A DNA stretch of 64,000 bases, from NCBI GenBank assembly GCA_000092065.1, contig CP000582.1, one strand, 5' to 3'. The notes beneath the pieces were generated by a model that had not been told where the DNA came from, ran no database searches, and saw nothing but the letters and a program-made list of their open reading frames with translations. The position numbers were made by a program, and so were the translations under genes. Source of the DNA: Ostreococcus lucimarinus. Its lineage: Eukaryota. Within the stretch, counting starts at the first letter, position 1, and each line of letters begins with the position of its first letter. Shown one piece after another: positions 3,423 to 43,413 of this stretch.

Positions 3423-6400
3423 ATGGATTCAAACGCGTCGCGGCTGTCGCGACACATCGCGACGACGATGCGACGCGCGGCGCGCGCGAACGACGACGAC
3501 GCGACGAAGCGACGAAAGAGTGATCCCGATGACGACGCGCTGCTGCGCGACGCCGAGGACGCGCGCGACGACGACGACGACGGCGCGACGACGGGAGGCG
3601 CGCGCGCGACGGGGGACGACGGCGCGGAGGAGTACGCCGACGACGTCGATTACGACGAGGAGGAGGTGTACGCGCGGACGACGAACGGCGAGGGCGAAGG
3701 ATTGATCGATGTGCGAGCGGCGGATCGCGCGAATTGGGTGCGACGACCGCTGGCGCGGGCGGTGGACGCGACGCGGGACGCGCTGCTGTTTCAACAGTTG
3801 GACATCGATTACGCGGTGGAGAAGCCGCACGAGGGACTGGGGGCGCGACGGGCGAAAGGTGACGCCGCGGTGGTGCGGATGTTCGGGGTGACGAAAGAGG
3901 GACACAGCGTGTGCGCGCACGTGCACGGGTTCGAGCCGTATTTTTACGCGTCGGTGCCGGAAAATTTCGGCGAGGCGGATTGCGCGGCGTTCAGGCGACG
4001 TTTGAACGAGGAGGTGAGCGCGGCGAGGAAGAACGCGCCGGGAGTGCACGTCGTGGACGTGTCGCTCGAGAGGAAGCAGAGTTTGATGCATTATAGCGAC
4101 GTGAAGGATCGCTTGTTCGCCAAGATCACGATGGGGCTGCCGAATATGGTGAGCGCGGCGCGAGGGATTTTGGAAAAGGGATTCAGCGTGCCGGGGGTTC
4201 GGGACGGGGCGTTCACGACGTACCCGACGTTTGAGTCCAACATCGTGTACGCCTTGCGGTTTATGGTGGACTGCGCCGTGGTCGGTGGGAACTGGATCGA
4301 GTTTCCGGTGAATTCGTACACGGTTCGTGCGAAGAAGGCGTCGCACTGTCAAATCGAAGTGGACATCATGTACGACAAGCTCATCTCGCACCCGGCGGAG
4401 GGTGAGTACTCCAAGCTCGCCCCGTTTCGCATCTTATCCGTGGATATCGAGTGTGCGGGGCGTAAAGGCCACTTTCCCGACGCACAATTGGATCCGGTGA
4501 TTCAGATCGCGACTCTAGTCACCGAGCAAGGGAGCGATAAACCGATTATTCGAGCCGTGTGGACGCTCGATACGTGCGCTCCGATCGTCGGCGCTGACGT
4601 CTTGAGTTTTAAGGATGAGCGGGAACTGCTTCGGAACTGGGGTAATTTTCTTCGCGGGTGCGACCCGGATTTGTTGATCGGCTATAACATCGTCAATTTC
4701 GATTTCCCGTACTTGTTGGAGCGCGCCGAGAAGCTCGGCGTCGCCGACTTTCCGTACTGGGGACGCTTGATCGGCACCAAGGTGCGCATGCGCGACACGG
4801 TTTTCTCGTCCAAGGCGTACGGTACGCACGAAAGTAAAGAAATATCTTGCGAGGGACGCGTGCAATTCGACATGCTTCGCGCTATTCAGCGCGATTACAA
4901 GTTGTCTTCATATTCGCTCAACGCAGTTTCTGCGCATTTTTTGGGCGAGCAAAAAGAAGACGTGCACTACAGCGCTATCTCGGAGCTGCAAAACGGTACG
5001 CCCGAGACGAGACGGCGTTTAGCGGTGTACTGTTTGAAGGATGCGTATCTTCCGCAGAGATTGCTGGACAAGTTGATGTACATGTACAACTACATCGAAA
5101 TGGCTCGCGTCACCGGCGTGCCGCTGAATTACCTGTTGACTCGCGGTCAGTCCATCAAGGTCATGTCGCAGCTTTTGCGCAAGGCGAGGCAGCGAAACAT
5201 GCTGATTCCTCACCATGTGAAGCAGGGCGGTGGCAACGTTCAAGCGGAGGGTGGTGTCGCGTACGAAGGTGCGACGGTCTTAGACGCCAAGGCTGGTTAC
5301 TACGAGATGCCCATCGCGACGCTCGATTTCGCTTCGCTGTATCCATCCATCATGATGGCTCACAATCTGTGCTACTCGACTTTAGTGCCAAAGGATAAGG
5401 TGGGTAAGCTCAACCCGGATGATTACGGGACATCGCCATCGGGAGATACGTTCGTGAAGGCATCCAAGGTGAAGGGGATTTTGCCAGAAATTTTAGAGGA
5501 ACTCTTGGGGGCGCGTAAACGCGCCAAGGCTGATCTTAAAAAAGCCACTGATCCGTTGCAAAAAGCGGTCTTAGACGGTCGCCAGCTCGCGCTGAAAGTC
5601 TCAGCAAACTCTGTGTACGGTTTCACCGGTGCCATGGTCGGACAGCTGCCTTGCCTCGAAATTTCTTCTTCAACGACGGCGTACGGCCGTACGATGATTG
5701 ATCACACGAAGAAAATGGTGGAAGAGAAGTATCGAACCGTGAATGGATACACTGGAAATGCCGAGGTCATTTATGGTGATACCGACTCCGTGATGATCAA
5801 GTTCAATACGCCGGATTTGGCGGAGTCTATGAAACTCGGTGAAGAAGCCGCGGTGTACGTCTCTGAGACGTTCTTGAAGCCTATCAAACTCGAATTCGAA
5901 AAGGTGTACTGGCCATATCTCTTGATTAGCAAGAAGCGCTACGCTGGTTTACTCTGGACGAACACTGAAAATTACGACAAGATGGACACCAAAGGTATCG
6001 AGACCGTGCGTCGCGATAACTGTTTGCTCGTGCGACAAGTCATCGAGACGGTTTTGGAGAAGATTTTGAAGCAGCGAGATGTGCAGGGCGCGGTGAAATA
6101 CGTGCAGAGTACGATCGCAGACTTGCTCATGAATAGATTAGATTTCTCACAGCTCGTGATCACGAAGGGTTTCACAAAAGAAGCAGACTCGTATGGGGTC
6201 AAGATGGCACACATAGAGCTCGCGCAGCGCATGCGCCAGCGCGATCCCGCCACCGCGCCGGTAGTCGGCGATCGTATCGCGTACGTCATCATTAAAGCGG
6301 CGAAGAACGCAAAGGCGTATGAAAAGTCAGAGGATCCGATTTTTGCTTTGGACAACAACTTACCCATCGATACGAAGCACTATTTGGATCACTACTTGAC

Positions 6401-36918: not shown

Positions 36919-37740
36919 CTACAAACGACGACCACGGCGACCACCCTTTCTACGAGTAGAATCCGTCGGCGTCGGCGTGACGTCTTCGATTCGGCCAATC
37001 TTCAACCCGGAGCGCGACAACGCGCGAAGCGCGCTTTGCCCGCCCGGACCCGGCGACTTCGTCTTATTACCCCCGGTCGCGCGCATCTTAATGTGCAGCG
37101 CCGTGATACCGAGCTCTTTGCATCGCGCGGCGACGTCTTGCGCCGCGAGCATCGCCGCATACGGCGAGGATTCATCGCGATCAGCCTTCACCTTCATCCC
37201 GCCGGTGCATCGGCTCAGGGTTTCCTTGCCCGACAAATCCGTCACGTGCTGCGTCGTCGAACGCGCGCGTCGGTCAGTCTCTCGCAATCGTCGTTCGGCG
37301 CGTCGCACGGCGCGCGCGAAAACGAAAACGAATGTCATCGCGCACGGCGTCGACGTCCTTCATCGCCGCGTCGCGCGCGCGTCGTCATCGCCATCGTGCG
37401 CGCGACGATCGCACTAGGGCTTTCATCGCGCCATCGCCATCGCCATCGTCATCGCGCGTCCCTCGCGCGCGTCGCGTCGCATCGCTCGTTCGAGCACGCA
37501 CCACGAAAGTATCGTTAAACGACGCGTAGATGTGCGCGACGCCGAAGACGAGCTCGCCCTCGCGCGCGTTGGGACCGACGTACGTAGCCTGCGCGCGGCG
37601 TCGATCGCGGTCGGGTCAGTCGGGCGTTCGCGTCGTCGTCGTCGCGCGCGCGCGCTCGGTCGCGCGCGCTCGGTCGCGCGCGCTCGACGCGATAGGCGCG
37701 CGCGTCGCGGCGTCGCGGCGTCGGTCGAGTCGCGCACCAT
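36919..37740 (-). CDS. RPS14: 40S ribosomal protein S14 (uS11), three exons, first coding exon = ATG only
   Basis: Exon 3 is 37248..36919: [109 protein letters not shown], near-identical to eukaryotic S14. Exon 2 is 37588..37502: [29 protein letters not shown]. Exon 1 is 37740..37738, ATG immediately followed by GTGCGCG. Confidence 0.85.
37249..37501 (-). other. RPS14 intron 2 (253 nt)
   Basis: Donor TTCGTG|GTGCGTGC. GAGACTGACCG about 25 nt upstream of acceptor CGACGCAG|CAC. Contains (GGCGAT)n hexamer repeats. Confidence 0.85.
37589..37737 (-). other. RPS14 intron 1 (149 nt), begins right after the start codon
   Basis: ATG|GTGCGCGAC donor. CCGACTGACCCG branch-like motif about 27 nt upstream of acceptor GCGCGCAG|GCT. 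Contains a tandem CGCGCGCTCGGT repeat. Confidence 0.65.
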
Positions 37741-37933
37741 GTCGCGGTGCGGCGCGTCGTCGAAAGACGGCGCGCGCGCGCCGCGCGCCCGCGGTCTCGC
37801 GGCGGGCGCGCGGATGGACGGTGTCGTCGATGTTGGCGTTTTCGGGCGTACTCTACGTGCGTTACTGAATACGCATACGGAGCGGTCGGTCGCCGCGGGG
37901 CCCGGCCGTTACACCGACGCGCGCGGCGTCGCG

Positions 37934-39712
37934 ATGACGGCGCGGCGCGAGCGCGCGCGCGCGCGGCGACGGCGCCGCGTCGCCCTCATCGCGTGCGCGT
38001 GCGCGCTCGCGGTGATCTGCGCGCGCGCGGTGACGCCGCGACGCGCGCGCGAGCGGCGCGCGGACGCGCGAACGCCGCGAGAACTCACGCTCGCGTCGCA
38101 CGGTGCGTTTCTGGCGCTGGACGTCGAGTCGAAGGCGGCGCGCGTGATACATCGCGGCCGGGGGGTGTATTACGGCACGTTCGAGGACGGATCGTCGTCG
38201 TCGGACGCGGTGTGGGTGGCGTCGAGGCCGGATAACGCGAAGACGCGGACGCGGACGGCGACGCGCGGGGACGCGTTGCTCAGAATAGACGCGAAGCGGG
38301 GGGAGATTTTAGAGGAAAGGGCGATCGATGCGGCGTTCACGCACGACGTCGTGCGACGAGGTGACTCGGTGTTCGTCGCCGACACTGGGAACGGGCGGAT
38401 TTTGGAGTTGGAGTATCCGTCGATGAGGACGCTTCGGGCGGTGGAGTTGTCGGTGAAGGCGCACGTGAATACGCTCGCGCCGGCGGACGCGAGCGAGTAC
38501 GGCGAGCACGCGGTGTGGGCGGTGCTTCATAATTTAGGTCCGAGCGAGGTGGCGTTGATCGACTTGGAAACTGGGCGCGAGTTGCGACCGAGGTTGACCA
38601 GAGTGGGCACGAAGTCGCACGGGTTGGTCATATACGAAGATCGATTCATCATGCTGAACAGTGGAGAGGGGCAATTGATTTCCGTGGACCCGTCGGGTGT
38701 CGAAGATTACGAGATTTTATGGACCGATGATTCGCGGACGTTCATGAAAGGGTTGTGCGTGATCGATGACGTGGCGTTTTTCGGCGTTTCGGCGTTCGGA
38801 AGAAGAGAAGACCGAGGCGATCCAAACAAGTCGAGCGACGTGGTGGCTTTCGATCTCGTTCGTAAGCGCGAGCTCTGGCGACAGACCGTGATGACGCACG
38901 GATTGCTCAACGTCATCGCCGCGCCGCAAATAGAGTCGAGCACTTGGTCGCACGCACATTGGAATGCAAACTCGCCGTCGTTGTACGCCGAATGGATTCC
39001 TCTGGCGGCGAAGCAAACGAACAATTGTGAAGCGACCGATCGGAATTCCTTGCTGTTGACGTACGACGACGTCGATGTACATCTGCTTCGTGATTACATT
39101 CAAGGCCTCCCTCGCGACGTGTTCAAAGAGTCTGGCAAAAACGGAAACGCTTTGTTGGGTGGGAGAGACGGCAACATGCAAAAGTTCAAGCCAAACGTCG
39201 ATGGCATGCTCTTGTTTTTCTCAGATCGAGGTGGCGAACACGTTTTTGAGTTTCCATTTTGGAAACGTCTCGAGCCGTACGTGCAACCTGTGCTGATTGA
39301 TTTGTTCACCGATCAACTCGGCGTCTCGGATCCGTTACGACACGTGATACGGCTACAGCTGGCGGTGATGAATCCTGGTTCTGAAATTTTGCCACACGTG
39401 GATACGGGCGACTGGGCGAGAAGACACCATCGATTTCACGTTCCAATCATAGTCCCGCAAAACGCTGGAGCGGTGGAATTCGTCATGATGCCAGAATCCG
39501 GTCAGGAAATCGCCGTTCCGCTCATCGAAGGTCGTCCATTTGAGATAAACAACGCGGTGACGCATCGAGTACGGAACAGCGCCTCGTCTTGGCGCATCCA
39601 CTTACTCGTCGACTTTAGCGAGCAACCGACGGCGAAGAGGCACGTGCTCAAGCCTGGGGACGTTTGTGACTACGCCAAAATGGGCAGCGGTCGGTGTGTG
39701 GCTGTCACTTAG
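37934..39712 (+). CDS. Membrane-anchored protein with NHL/beta-propeller-like region and C-terminal aspartyl/asparaginyl beta-hydroxylase-type 2OG-Fe(II) oxygenase domain
   Basis: Start placed at ATG 37934: [30 protein letters not shown], a signal anchor. Earlier in-frame ATGs fall inside the RPS14 5' region on the other strand. The middle region has VFVADTGNGRILELEY-type propeller blades. The C-terminus has the AspH-family core LPHVDTGDWARRHHRFHVPIIVP ... GRPFEINNAVTHRVRNSASSWRIHLLVDF. Confidence 0.6.
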   Translation: MTARRERARARRRRRVALIACACALAVICARAVTPRRARERRADARTPRELTLASHGAFLALDVESKAARVIHRGRGVYYGTFEDGSSSSDAVWVASRPDNAKTRTRTATRGDALLRIDAKRGEILEERAIDAAFTHDVVRRGDSVFVADTGNGRILELEYPSMRTLRAVELSVKAHVNTLAPADASEYGEHAVWAVLHNLGPSEVALIDLETGRELRPRLTRVGTKSHGLVIYEDRFIMLNSGEGQLISVDPSGVEDYEILWTDDSRTFMKGLCVIDDVAFFGVSAFGRREDRGDPNKSSDVVAFDLVRKRELWRQTVMTHGLLNVIAAPQIESSTWSHAHWNANSPSLYAEWIPLAAKQTNNCEATDRNSLLLTYDDVDVHLLRDYIQGLPRDVFKESGKNGNALLGGRDGNMQKFKPNVDGMLLFFSDRGGEHVFEFPFWKRLEPYVQPVLIDLFTDQLGVSDPLRHVIRLQLAVMNPGSEILPHVDTGDWARRHHRFHVPIIVPQNAGAVEFVMMPESGQEIAVPLIEGRPFEINNAVTHRVRNSASSWRIHLLVDFSEQPTAKRHVLKPGDVCDYAKMGSGRCVAVT

Positions 39713-39783: not shown

Positions 39784-42700
39784 TCACATGATTTTGATCG
39801 CTCGCTCAAATCCAGCCGGCTTCCCCTGACGGCTAGCCGGCCTTCGCGGACCTCTAACTTCGCGCTCGATCCCCAGCGTCGATTCGCAAAAGCCCTCTTT
39901 GGCGATGCGAACCAATTTACTCGATATAACCAACTCGTCGTCGTCCAAGATTTCATACCGCGGCGGGTGGCCGATGTAGAACTTCCATTTTGCGAAGTCC
40001 TCATCCGTCGCTTCGAGCCTCGTCTTGATCCGAGCCTTCACTTCCCCGAGCGTCTCACCTTCACACGTGCGAAGTAACATCGGTTCATCGTAGGCATAGA
40101 ACTGGTTAGGATTGGACAAGTCTTTGGAAATGTTGTACACACGCAAGAGTCTGTCTTCCTCTGACTCGTCATCGGGAACTTCCTCCGCACGAAGCGTCCA
40201 ATATTGGTCGTTGATATCTGCGATATCCTTTTCCTCCTCGAAAACTTTGTAGATTTGCGAGTAGAAAAGTTCAAGCAGACGTAATTTGCGACCGCCGACT
40301 CGAGTACCGAGCCTAGATCTGACCTCTTCGAGGACATCCTTCACCGCTGCGCTCTTCGACAGACGCAGTTGGAATTCTTCAACGAGCTTTGTGTTCAGTC
40401 CATGGAAGAAAACTTTTAGCGTCTTCAATTCCTGGAGTTCGGGCAGCGGCATGTCTAAGACTTCGTAATAGAGCACGTCGCTTTGCTGGTTTTCCAGCAT
40501 TTTTATCAAAGTATCCGCGCCTCTAAATTGGAAGCTTGCACTCTTTGGACCGTTCGTGTACACGTGATGCGCGGTGAAGCGCAATCGAAGAGGATCGTCC
40601 AAACCGATCGCCGAAGCCAAAACATCAGCGACTTGATCGTAACTCATCATTTTCGTCAACTCCAGAGTCACTTTGTCCACCTTAGGGGCCTCCAGCTCTC
40701 TGAAGTGAACGATTTGATGATTGTGTCTGAAGTCCGCATATTGAACCACGTTGGGGAACTTTAGTGAATCTTCCATGTCTTCAGTGATTTCTGGTTGAAT
40801 AAGCAAGATATCACCGTTACCGAGCTGCAACGTCTTGCTACCGTCATCGGGGTCGCTCAACGGATATGTTTTCACTTGTTTGTCCGATAATTGATCAATT
40901 TGAATCTTACTTTCGCGAACGAACGCAATTTCCTCAAACATGAGCGTTGACGCGGTACTGGCAAACCCTGCCATGGATTTGATCTTCGGCATGTAGGTAC
41001 TGAGCGTCTCCTCGGGACTCGCGTAAAGCGTGCCACAGTAACTCAACCGCGCCTCATGCGGATTGTAAAGCTTGACGTGCAACCAAATGTCTCTTTCTGG
41101 GTCACTGTTCGCGAACGCATCATCGTCAAGCTCTTCCAGGTAGAGTCTGAATTCGCCTGATGAAGCATGCTGTGAGTTAGGCACCGTGTATTTCAGCCGT
41201 GTTTTTTCAACCGTCCAGGTCGGTGGGGTATTTGCGTGGTCTGGAAGCGCGGTGGCTGGCCGAGATGTTTTGTTGCGTCGTGGCGAGTAAGTCCAGTACC
41301 GCTGCCTCTCAGCTGGTATTCCGAGCTTCTCGGAAACGAGCTCCCTAAACTTTGTAAATGTCGACTTTTTATGCAGTCGGAACCTTTGCGCGCTCTCAAA
41401 ATTGCCCAGATCAAAAAACTTCTCCGAAGCGATCTGCCGCTCTAAATCTTGCCTGGTCAAAACCTTGATGATGGTGTACAGATGCGCCTCCTTCTTTTCC
41501 TGCGCCTCTTTCTCCTTTGCCTTCTGCTCCTCAGCGAAGCGGGCCTGGAGGTATTCCGTGAGATGAGACTTATTGGCGACGCACATGATTTGATCCATGT
41601 CATCCTCTCGAATGTACACGAGCATGTAGGCGCTACTCACTTTTTGGAACCGCAAGTTCGGCGCCACGCGGACGTTTGTCGAGTCATCGTCTGCATCCAT
41701 ATCGCTATCGACCGCGGCTGCGCCGCCGCTTCCGTACTGTTCCACCACCGACTTTTCTGCGGTTTCTTTCGTCACGTGTTCGTCATCAAACTTGAACCAC
41801 TGCGCATCTTCCGCCTGCAAATTGGGCTTGACAAACGCGTAATAATGTCCACCATTTATCCCCCCGCTGTGTACTAAGACGCTATGAAGCTTATACTTGT
41901 TGCGAACACTCTTGTCGGACTCGGGAACGAGGTACTTACGATCACCCACGTCGAGATCGAGCTCTTCGGGGAACTCATATCTATCATGGATCTTCACCAT
42001 GGTGTCTCGTTGGTAATCGTACTCAAAACGCTTCAGCTGAATCTGCAACACGGGAGGAAAGTCGTGGAACAGCGTGCCTTTGCGAGCGTCTTGCAATCCG
42101 TGTCCCTCGGCGCGATACTTGTTCTCGCCATCAAGTTTTTCAATCTCAGTGTAACGATCAAAGGACGCATAAATATCTTTGCATCCCTTGACGTCTAACT
42201 GAAGATCGAGAAACTCCTCCTTGCGTTCGCTCTTGTAATCAACGTTGATGCACTCGATGAAGTTCGTCGTGTGCCCTTCGAAGAGCTTCTGAATCGTGCC
42301 CTCGACGCACGTTTGTTTCATGGCCTCTTCAAGCTTATCCTGAAGTACACGGTTGAGTTCCTGTACGTCGTGTTGCATGAAGGAATCGTAAGAGTCCCAT
42401 CCAAACGATCGCGTCAAATCCTCCGTGCTCACGTCGCCTTCTTTGGCGTACTGAAGACAGTAGAACACCGATTGTAACGCTAATGGCATCGATGTGTGCG
42501 CCTCTTCCGTTTCGTTCGTAGGCATGTGATAGACCGCGCGACGAAAGGAGGGAATGTGATAGAGCGTCTGCAAGAGCGAGTTCATGTAACACGTCGCCCC
42601 TTGATTCTTCAGACCGATCAGCCCTGTCTCTTTGCGCGAGTCGTATTCGCTATAAAACGCACTCTGCATCGGTCGGTCGACTTCGTGCTCCTCAATCGGC

Positions 42701-43413
42701 GTCACATGCACTCGGAAATTCACACAGCCTTCGGCGTCAACGTAGCCCTTTTCAAAAACGTCTTCGCGCGTGATGAACGACGCGAACCCCCAATCCGCTT
42801 CGCGTCTGTCGAACGTGTGCGACGTTTCCTTCGATTCTACCACCGACGCATCCGTCGGATGAAGCAGCTGCAATTCGAACTTCGCGTGCCTTCTCCACTC
42901 TCTACTCATGTCGTCCTCGATTCGGCGCGGCTTTGTCGCCCCCGTGTCCAAGAACAAGCTCACCTGCGCCGGCGTCTCCGATTTCGAGTTCAAATTACTC
43001 CCGAACGGATACATCGCCAACCGAAAGAGTGTATCTCCGCACTCAAACGTTTGACTCACCACCTTCGCGTCTCGTTTCTTCCATCGCGAGAACTCGGCGC
43101 GCCACGAGAACGTCGTCGGCTCCGCCGTCGAGAACGCCAACTCGCTATCTTCCGAACCGCTCGACATCGATCGATCGTCGTCTTCCGCGTCCGACGCGTT
43201 GCCGTCGTCGGCATCTAACGACCGCATCTCCACTGCTCGCGCGGGCGTCGTTCGTCCGGACGCGTCGTCGTCAGTCGTCGAGGCGGGTGCGGATTCCAGA
43301 TCGATTGCCGTCGCGATTCTCCGTCGGTTTCGTCGCGCGCGAAGCGCGCGCGCCCGATCGAGCGCCCGCGAGCGATGCGCACCGTCTTGCGAGGCGATAT
43401 CATCGCCTGACAT
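39784..43413 (-). CDS. USP7: Ubiquitin carboxyl-terminal hydrolase 7 (USP7/HAUSP; plant UBP12/13-type) with N-terminal MATH domain
   Basis: ATG at 43413. MATH: FSWRAEFSRWKKRDAKVVSQTFECGDTLFRLAMYPFG. Cys box: GLKNQGATCYMNSLLQTLYHIPSFRRAVY. His box: YKLHSVLVHSGGINGGHYYAFVKP. Long UBL-repeat C-terminal region. 1209 aa single exon. Confidence 0.9.
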   Translation of the reverse strand: MSGDDIASQDGAHRSRALDRARALRARRNRRRIATAIDLESAPASTTDDDASGRTTPARAVEMRSLDADDGNASDAEDDDRSMSSGSEDSELAFSTAEPTTFSWRAEFSRWKKRDAKVVSQTFECGDTLFRLAMYPFGSNLNSKSETPAQVSLFLDTGATKPRRIEDDMSREWRRHAKFELQLLHPTDASVVESKETSHTFDRREADWGFASFITREDVFEKGYVDAEGCVNFRVHVTPIEEHEVDRPMQSAFYSEYDSRKETGLIGLKNQGATCYMNSLLQTLYHIPSFRRAVYHMPTNETEEAHTSMPLALQSVFYCLQYAKEGDVSTEDLTRSFGWDSYDSFMQHDVQELNRVLQDKLEEAMKQTCVEGTIQKLFEGHTTNFIECINVDYKSERKEEFLDLQLDVKGCKDIYASFDRYTEIEKLDGENKYRAEGHGLQDARKGTLFHDFPPVLQIQLKRFEYDYQRDTMVKIHDRYEFPEELDLDVGDRKYLVPESDKSVRNKYKLHSVLVHSGGINGGHYYAFVKPNLQAEDAQWFKFDDEHVTKETAEKSVVEQYGSGGAAAVDSDMDADDDSTNVRVAPNLRFQKVSSAYMLVYIREDDMDQIMCVANKSHLTEYLQARFAEEQKAKEKEAQEKKEAHLYTIIKVLTRQDLERQIASEKFFDLGNFESAQRFRLHKKSTFTKFRELVSEKLGIPAERQRYWTYSPRRNKTSRPATALPDHANTPPTWTVEKTRLKYTVPNSQHASSGEFRLYLEELDDDAFANSDPERDIWLHVKLYNPHEARLSYCGTLYASPEETLSTYMPKIKSMAGFASTASTLMFEEIAFVRESKIQIDQLSDKQVKTYPLSDPDDGSKTLQLGNGDILLIQPEITEDMEDSLKFPNVVQYADFRHNHQIVHFRELEAPKVDKVTLELTKMMSYDQVADVLASAIGLDDPLRLRFTAHHVYTNGPKSASFQFRGADTLIKMLENQQSDVLYYEVLDMPLPELQELKTLKVFFHGLNTKLVEEFQLRLSKSAAVKDVLEEVRSRLGTRVGGRKLRLLELFYSQIYKVFEEEKDIADINDQYWTLRAEEVPDDESEEDRLLRVYNISKDLSNPNQFYAYDEPMLLRTCEGETLGEVKARIKTRLEATDEDFAKWKFYIGHPPRYEILDDDELVISSKLVRIAKEGFCESTLGIEREVRGPRRPASRQGKPAGFERAIKIM

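Follow-up and report, generated by a model that had tools for sequence, protein, structure and literature searches.

The RPS14 locus of Ostreococcus lucimarinus raises the question of where the coding sequence of ribosomal protein S14 begins. The DNA analysed here, referred to as the window, is a stretch of 64,000 nucleotides of contig CP000582.1 (assembly GCA_000092065.1). A preliminary description made from the letters of the window had proposed that the first coding exon consists of nothing but the start codon and that the intron begins at the fourth nucleotide. Its coordinates, the intron length of 149 nt and the GCTACG on the acceptor side were all reproduced. With a probability of roughly 0.93, we consider the locus to be a three-exon RPS14 gene on the minus strand, with a start-codon intron that was likely inherited and was lost in some Ostreococcus, and with a short N-terminus that is genuine.

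The only coding triplet of exon 1 is the ATG at 37738..37740, as seen by direct reading of the minus strand. It is immediately followed by GTGCGCGAC, the donor end (donor motif GTGCGCGA) of intron 1, a phase 0 intron of 149 nt (37589..37737), whose assignment is based on its splice signals, on relatives and on a spliced transcript from a sister lineage (lineage D, see below). The branch sequence CGACTGACC lies within CCGACTGACCCG: ACTGAC occupies 37620..37615 and the branch adenine is at 37616, 27 nt before the 3′ end. The acceptor end is GCGCGCAG, with GCGCAG ending at 37589. Exon 2 (37502..37588, 29 codons, assembled by script) starts with GCTACG (GCTACGTAC) at 37588 and ends with ACTTTCGTG at 37502. 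Intron 2 (37249..37501, 253 nt), whose position is common to O. tauri, all environmental lineages and Micromonas, has the donor GTGCGTGC, the branch site AGACTGACC (adenine at 37274, 25 nt before the 3′ end) and the acceptor CGCAG. Exon 3 (36919..37248) comprises 109 codons and the stop codon TAG (36921..36919). On the 5′ side of the ATG, a conserved pyrimidine-rich motif, CCGTCTTTCGACGACGC, marks 37741..37770 as the probable 5′UTR with a putative TOP-like transcription start region; exon 1 is probably about 30 nt long in total (short 5′UTR plus ATG).

The spliced coding sequence of the three exons has 420 nt and encodes 139 amino acids, reading .../HVTDLSGKE...RRGRRL across the joint between exons 2 and 3. 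The length of about 138 aa given in the preliminary description was right as to the short form of the protein; the actual count is 139 aa including the Met. An exact-sequence look-up found the product to be identical in 139/139 residues to XP_001416360.1 / ABO94653.1, deposited for O. lucimarinus CCE9901 as 'Ribosomal protein S14, component of cytosolic 80S ribosome and 40S small subunit'. The gene model is public already and not new, and the identical protein suggests that the deposited junctions are the same. Residues 17-135 match the Pfam family PF00411 (Ribosomal_S11) over profile positions 1-110/110 with E = 9.6e-46 and 155 bits (cutoff 25.1), and identity to green-algal and plant S14 proteins is 85-92%. 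Judged by the full-length profile match, the locus is the gene of the cytosolic small-subunit protein S14 (uS11). The best-scoring database match, P0001 (NCBI, 212 aa, 757-bp contig), is a eukaryotic 40S S14 that carries the label 'Clostridioides difficile'; its source is almost certainly a contig that contaminates a bacterial assembly.

Exon 2 contains no Met, and a TGA (inside ACTGAC) is located in its frame nine codons 5′ of the exon; an upstream exon supplying the ATG is therefore required. As the length of intron 1 is not divisible by three, this ATG is out of frame in the unspliced sequence, where ATG 37740 opens an Arg-rich ORF of 105 aa, outside the S14 frame and without homology. Past the preceding in-frame stop, ATG 37740 is the first ATG of that frame, and no other upstream ATG has a phase 0 GTRCG donor. 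The minus strand has only two more ATGs within about 250 nt upstream of it, at 37876 and 37989. The former yields MRIQ followed by a stop and has no phase 0 donor; the latter lies antisense within the coding sequence of the neighbouring gene and has poor, non-consensus donors. The ATG of this neighbour is 193 bp from the RPS14 ATG, which leaves little room for a further upstream RPS14 exon. By itself, the 8-mer ATGGTGCG is unremarkable: it occurs six times in the window (2.0 expected), a count reached by 2 of 100 shuffles, and none of the other five sites fits a start-codon-intron model. It is the whole configuration, not the 8-mer alone, that is not due to chance, given the frame constraints, the identical deposited protein and the contiguity in O. 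tauri.

In O. tauri (L001/L002) ATGGCTACGTACGTC is contiguous, with the same ATG abutting GCTACGTACGTC, and the gene start cATGGCTACGTACGTCGGC is uninterrupted. Its second intron is at the same codon boundary as intron 2. The difference between the two species is a clean GT...AG insertion of 149 nt between ATG and GCT, which fixes the junction to the nucleotide. The alignment with Ostreococcus and Micromonas RPS14 models that had been proposed as a check thus bore out the junction, through O. tauri, and revealed ATG/GT in both Micromonas species. The O. tauri gene (XP_022840792.1; L001) resembles that of O. lucimarinus in its 139-aa product beginning with MATYVGP, in having an intron 2 with the 9-mer AAAGCCCTA, in its 5′UTR motif and in the downstream synteny, and differs from it in lacking an intron after the ATG and in having USP7 as its direct upstream neighbour.

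A degenerate-pattern scan of metagenome contigs for an S14 segment yielded 33 loci, which were grouped into several lineages, and intron 1 was compared across lineages by anchored extraction. An ATG-adjacent intron is present in lineage A, the O. lucimarinus type (the window, L008, L017 and L027; 148/149 nt), in lineage B (L011, L013, L022, L037 and the variant L025; 176/178 nt; ATG/GTACGC...CGACTAACCG...GCGCAG/GCGCAATAC), in lineage D (L006 and others; 183 nt) and in lineage E (L016 and others; 180 nt). O. tauri and lineages C (L009 and others), F (L028) and G (L030) are without it; intron 2 is kept in all lineages. Between lineages the coding sequences are 88-90% identical, whereas intron 1 is only 56-65% identical, compared with 53% for shuffled controls. 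The splice signals of intron 1 are conserved in lineages A, B, D and E: the donor is GTRCGC (GTAAGC in one variant), CTRAC is found 27-35 nt before the 3′ end, and the acceptor junction is GCAG/GCN. The length differences between lineages are not multiples of three. A functional spliceosomal intron, rather than coding sequence, is expected to show this combination of retained signals, diverged interiors and indels. The interior of intron 1 (37641..37690, minus strand) contains a short tandem GACCGAGCGCGCGC repeat that differs from that in L008, L017 and L027 (149 versus 148 nt), a case of population-level indel variation between the window and environmental O. lucimarinus contigs that are nearly identical elsewhere.

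Intron 1 is spliced in a sister lineage. The mature part of the Tara Oceans unigene P0002 equals the lineage D protein with 0 differences, and the genomic DNA just 5′ of the lineage D ATG (..ctctccgcgacgcaaagacacgccATG), translated in frame, gives the leader of the unigene, LSATQRHA. Since the leader matches the genomic 5′UTR, the lineage D mRNA joins 5′UTR and ATG straight to GCTACG. The MMETSP culture transcript P0123 and the Tara transcripts P0003 and P0078 also begin with MATYVGP. We infer that intron 1 is spliced in O. lucimarinus itself; S14 is not among the EST-supported ribosomal protein models in the EST paper on this species. A different picture was obtained with the only transcript-like contig of lineage B (L003, the same as L007; JGI Ga0182095_1419292), from which intron 2 has been removed and in which intron 1 is retained (positions 84-260). 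This contig reaches 83 nt 5′ of the ATG, past the conserved 5′UTR motif. L004, an RPS14 contig of the same sample, also lacks intron 2, so that the sample is apparently a metatranscriptome. The retention may reflect an assembler following pre-mRNA or DNA reads rather than the dominant isoform; alternatively, splicing of intron 1 may be slow or regulated in lineage B. On this contig a prokaryote-style call (P0125, 157 aa) takes an ATG within intron 1 as its start; in the close variant L025 this ATG is out of frame, and it is therefore not a conserved alternative start.

These data bear on two other ways of reading the 5′ end. A longer Lys-rich upstream exon spliced to 37588 had been named as the counter-case to the ATG-only model. 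One example would be an exon that starts at ATG 37989 and is followed by a phase 0 GT at 37938 or 37914, which would add an Arg-rich extension of 17 or 25 residues. Such an ATG and in-frame GT dinucleotides do exist, and a basic N-terminal extension is present in most eukaryotic S14 proteins; this segment, however, is antisense to the N-terminal coding sequence of the neighbouring gene, and its donors, GTCATC and GTGTAA, differ from the GTRCG of every verified intron here. Moreover, the deposited protein and the culture and environmental transcripts all begin with MATYVGP, and other lineages have unrelated upstream sequence yet the same ATG context. Inspection of the upstream ATGs turned up no suitable exon, a longer first exon is highly improbable, and the ATG-only model stands. 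It is just as improbable that the 149 nt are never removed and that S14 is made from a non-AUG or a downstream start, ATG 37740 being irrelevant. The lineage B contig that keeps the counterpart of intron 1 though it has lost intron 2 speaks for absence of splicing, but the next Met is in exon 3, past the first 46 of the 139 residues, which include the start of the Ribosomal_S11 match. The 105-aa out-of-frame ORF opened by the unspliced ATG, the TGA closing the exon 2 frame, the intronic ATG of lineage B shifted out of frame in L025, and the spliced lineage D transcript likewise argue against it.

With the bare ATG as exon 1, the protein lacks the basic or Lys-rich N-terminal extension, some 12-15 residues long, that precedes the LGP..REGE block; only M-A-T-Y precede VGPNAREGE. 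The absence of this extension had been anticipated in the preliminary description, and holds for the 139-aa protein when compared with the 149-155 aa found in other green lineages: S14 has 151 aa in M. commoda, 153 in M. pusilla, 155 in Mantoniella, 149 in Chloropicon, 153 in Chlamydomonas and 151 in Marchantia. These proteins have 10-16 additional N-terminal residues relative to the Ostreococcus type. The short MATYVGP N-terminus is found also in O. tauri and in the MMETSP and Tara transcripts. The 139-aa form is genuine and specific to the Ostreococcus-type proteins examined; the N-terminal extension is typical of S14/uS11 but not defining.

The position of intron 1, in phase 0 exactly between ATG 37740..37738 and GCT 37588, places it among the start-codon introns. 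Phase 0 introns between codons 1 and 2 are in sharp excess in vertebrates, arthropods, fungi and plants (Nielsen & Wernersson 2006, PMC1626468). The proteins concerned are short and conserved, with a strong enrichment of ribosomal proteins (PMC1626468); in human ribosomal protein genes the ATG ends the first exon in 20/73 cases (Yoshihama et al. 2002, as quoted in PMC1626468). RPS14 is like this class in intron phase, in the codon 1/2 position, in encoding a short conserved ribosomal protein and in that the position is occupied in distant relatives. It differs from the class in no essential respect; O. lucimarinus S14 is without the Lys-rich N-terminus that members tend to have, and some close Ostreococcus relatives have the intron and others do not. 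The observation is thus right without being unusual: the model is deposited, the class has been described since 2002-2006, and no new biology is added. A minor addition of the present work is the presence/absence pattern of the RPS14 start-codon intron among close Ostreococcus lineages.

The signals of intron 1, GTGCGC...CGACTGACC...27 nt...CAG, are those of a canonical Ostreococcus U2-type intron, and intron 2 has its corresponding branch site at 25 nt. In the introns of the relatives CTRAC is 25-42 nt before the 3′ end. The extended branch motif of canonical Ostreococcus introns is GACTGAC (Irimia & Roy 2008, as cited in PMC3879977), and O. lucimarinus introns are enriched in highly expressed genes (PMC2367439). 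Exon 1 would be a very short 5′UTR ending in ATG. The spliceosome would remove the 149-nt U2-type GT-AG intron by way of the Ostreococcus-type extended branch site, and the removal would join the ATG to GCT ACG TAC...

Beyond Ostreococcus, both Micromonas species have an ATG-only first coding exon in RPS14: M. commoda has ATG/GTAAGC with an intron of 111 nt, and M. pusilla ATG/GTGAGA with an intron of 103 nt. The Micromonas loci were reached through cluster membership. The liverwort Marchantia has ATG/GTACGC and an intron of 356 nt, and a 'putative ribosomal protein S14' of Arabidopsis is among the start-codon-intron genes in Table S2 of PMC1626468. In Chloropicon primus and in a Chlamydomonas-group genome RPS14 is without an ATG-adjacent intron. 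A homology search seeded with the Tara protein P0003 returned no Bathycoccus or other genomic outgroup. Like the Ostreococcus gene, Micromonas RPS14 (XP_002507491.1, XP_003056157.1) has a first coding exon limited to the ATG and an intron following ...DTFV; it differs in its length of 151/153 aa, in its acidic N-terminal extension, in having two further 3′ introns, and in the donors GTAAGC/GTGAGA. Of the four introns in the Micromonas genes only the two 5′-most are found in Ostreococcus.

Since Micromonas and Marchantia have it too, the intron is in all likelihood ancestral, with losses in O. tauri and some other lineages; it was most likely inherited from the common ancestor of the Mamiellales, and possibly from that of green plants. 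The simplest reading is that O. lucimarinus kept an old intron that was lost at least twice within Ostreococcus. Alternatively, intron 1 could be real but a recent gain within Ostreococcus, inserted at an ATG/G proto-splice site (an idea discussed in PMC1626468) in the ancestor of lineages A, B, D and E; Micromonas and Marchantia would then have gained their introns in parallel at the same favoured site. O. tauri and lineages C, F and G have no intron, and in a neighbour-joining tree of the 417-nt coding sequence, which is weak and midpoint-rooted, the intron-less lineages C and F are basal, outside the rest. The intron interiors are barely above shuffled similarity, and their sequences have diverged too far for homology among lineages to be proven. 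Micromonas and Ostreococcus proteins cannot be aligned in the N-terminal region that follows the ATG, so that the start codon is the only reference point for positional homology. Recent gain has to contend with the presence of an intron at exactly the same place in both Micromonas species, in Marchantia and apparently in Arabidopsis. In the coding sequence tree O. tauri and lineage G are among the intron-bearing lineages, implying at least one loss anyway, and the retention in Ostreococcus of only two of the four Micromonas introns also points to loss. We therefore find a gain within Ostreococcus unlikely, though it deserves to be weighed. Being patchy among close Ostreococcus lineages and present in Micromonas and Marchantia, the intron provides a clean small example of loss during genome streamlining.

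Intron 1 could also matter for expression. Yeast RPS14B (CRY2) reportedly has an autoregulated 5′ intron. The likeness to Ostreococcus consists in the same protein family, an intron near the 5′ end of the coding sequence, and one environmental contig that retains the corresponding intron. An intron of the yeast type would have a conserved RNA stem-loop, bound by S14, across exon 1 and the 5′ part of the intron; no conserved or unusually stable RNA structure was found here around exon 1 and intron 1. The RNA of exon 1 and intron 1 was not unusually stable (fold z = +0.28; 125/200 shuffles folded at least as well). A comparison of six sequences from four lineages, which is of low power, revealed no conserved or covarying structure (consensus -3.7 kcal/mol, covariation term unfavourable at +0.28 kcal/mol, 1/9 predicted pairs compensatory). 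By analogy with the yeast gene, intron 1 might act as a regulated checkpoint at which slow or S14-dependent splicing tunes the output of S14, a role that we consider quite improbable. Such a checkpoint would explain the lineage B transcript that is without intron 2 but with intron 1, and where O. tauri and other lineages repeatedly lost the intron, this would amount to a rewiring of ribosomal protein regulation between sibling picoalgae.

Scanning both RPS14 introns against Rfam for intron-hosted snoRNAs gave no family, only a sub-threshold chance match. For introner elements, the repeated intron families of Micromonas, no occurrence in ribosomal protein genes is reported (PMC3879977). Within the 64 kb intron 1 does not behave as such an element: a blastn search of both strands of the window detected no discrete copy of it, only low-complexity GC-rich matches (68-80% over >50 nt) and simple-sequence stretches of about 20-57 nt.

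The interior of intron 2 contains one conserved block, the 9-mer AAAGCCCTA (37415..37423, minus strand), which an alignment of 10 Ostreococcus lineages (the window, L001, L006, L009, L011, L016, L021, L025, L028 and L030) showed to be invariant; the rest of the interior is barely alignable. No other AARCCCTA occurs in the 64-kb window. The homologous intron 2 of Micromonas contains AAACCCTAA or AAGCCCTAA (L038 at about 2288, L040 at about 2262). The 9-mer is similar to the telo box of plants, AAACCCTA, a motif enriched in 5′ regions and in the first two introns of genes for the translation apparatus (PMC3022908). Its conservation suggests that it is possibly an intronic cis-element, one that might help explain the survival of intron 2 under genome compaction.

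A second conserved element is the 5′UTR motif CCGYCTYTYnnnCGACGC (about 37753..37770, minus strand), which all Ostreococcus lineages examined (L001-L037) have within some 40 nt 5′ of the ATG, whether intron 1 is present or not. The lineage D transcript P0002 begins within this motif, and its translation starts with 'MG' followed by LSATQRHAM. A SMART template-switch oligo ending in ...ATGGG and fused to the cap site CCTCTCC, about 25 nt before the ATG, would presumably account for this start. The motif probably represents a TOP-like transcription start, which would place the start site there.

Upstream of RPS14 lies a divergent gene (37934..39712, plus strand) encoding 592 aa with a weak Asp_Arg_Hydrox match at the C-terminus and a probable N-terminal signal anchor. 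In O. lucimarinus this gene sits between RPS14 and USP7 (39784..43413, minus strand), whereas in O. tauri (L001, 1..3641) USP7 is directly upstream of RPS14, with a spacer of 270 bp. The extra divergent gene indicates that a gene was gained or lost directly at the RPS14 promoter. Downstream, synteny with O. tauri is conserved, with a gene of 403/391 aa followed by a papain-type peptidase.

A scan of both strands of the window for a second start-codon intron (ATG/GTRNG, CTRAC, YAG and an open exon) gave no convincing case. One candidate, at 5216, was unconvincing. In M. pusilla the first intron of RPS15A, the gene adjoining RPS14 (L040), follows codon 12 rather than the ATG. For annotation, the locus teaches that ORF-based or prokaryote-style callers mis-start ribosomal protein genes in compact, intron-poor algal genomes; the JGI calls that begin in intron 1 are one example, and an ORF that begins in intron 2 is another. 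Public annotation has RPS14 right. The mechanical ORF finder called an ORF of 139 aa (36919..37338, minus strand) from an ATG inside intron 2, so that its first 30 residues are intron-derived and stand in for exons 1 and 2. By coincidence, this mis-called ORF has the same length as the true protein, 139 aa.
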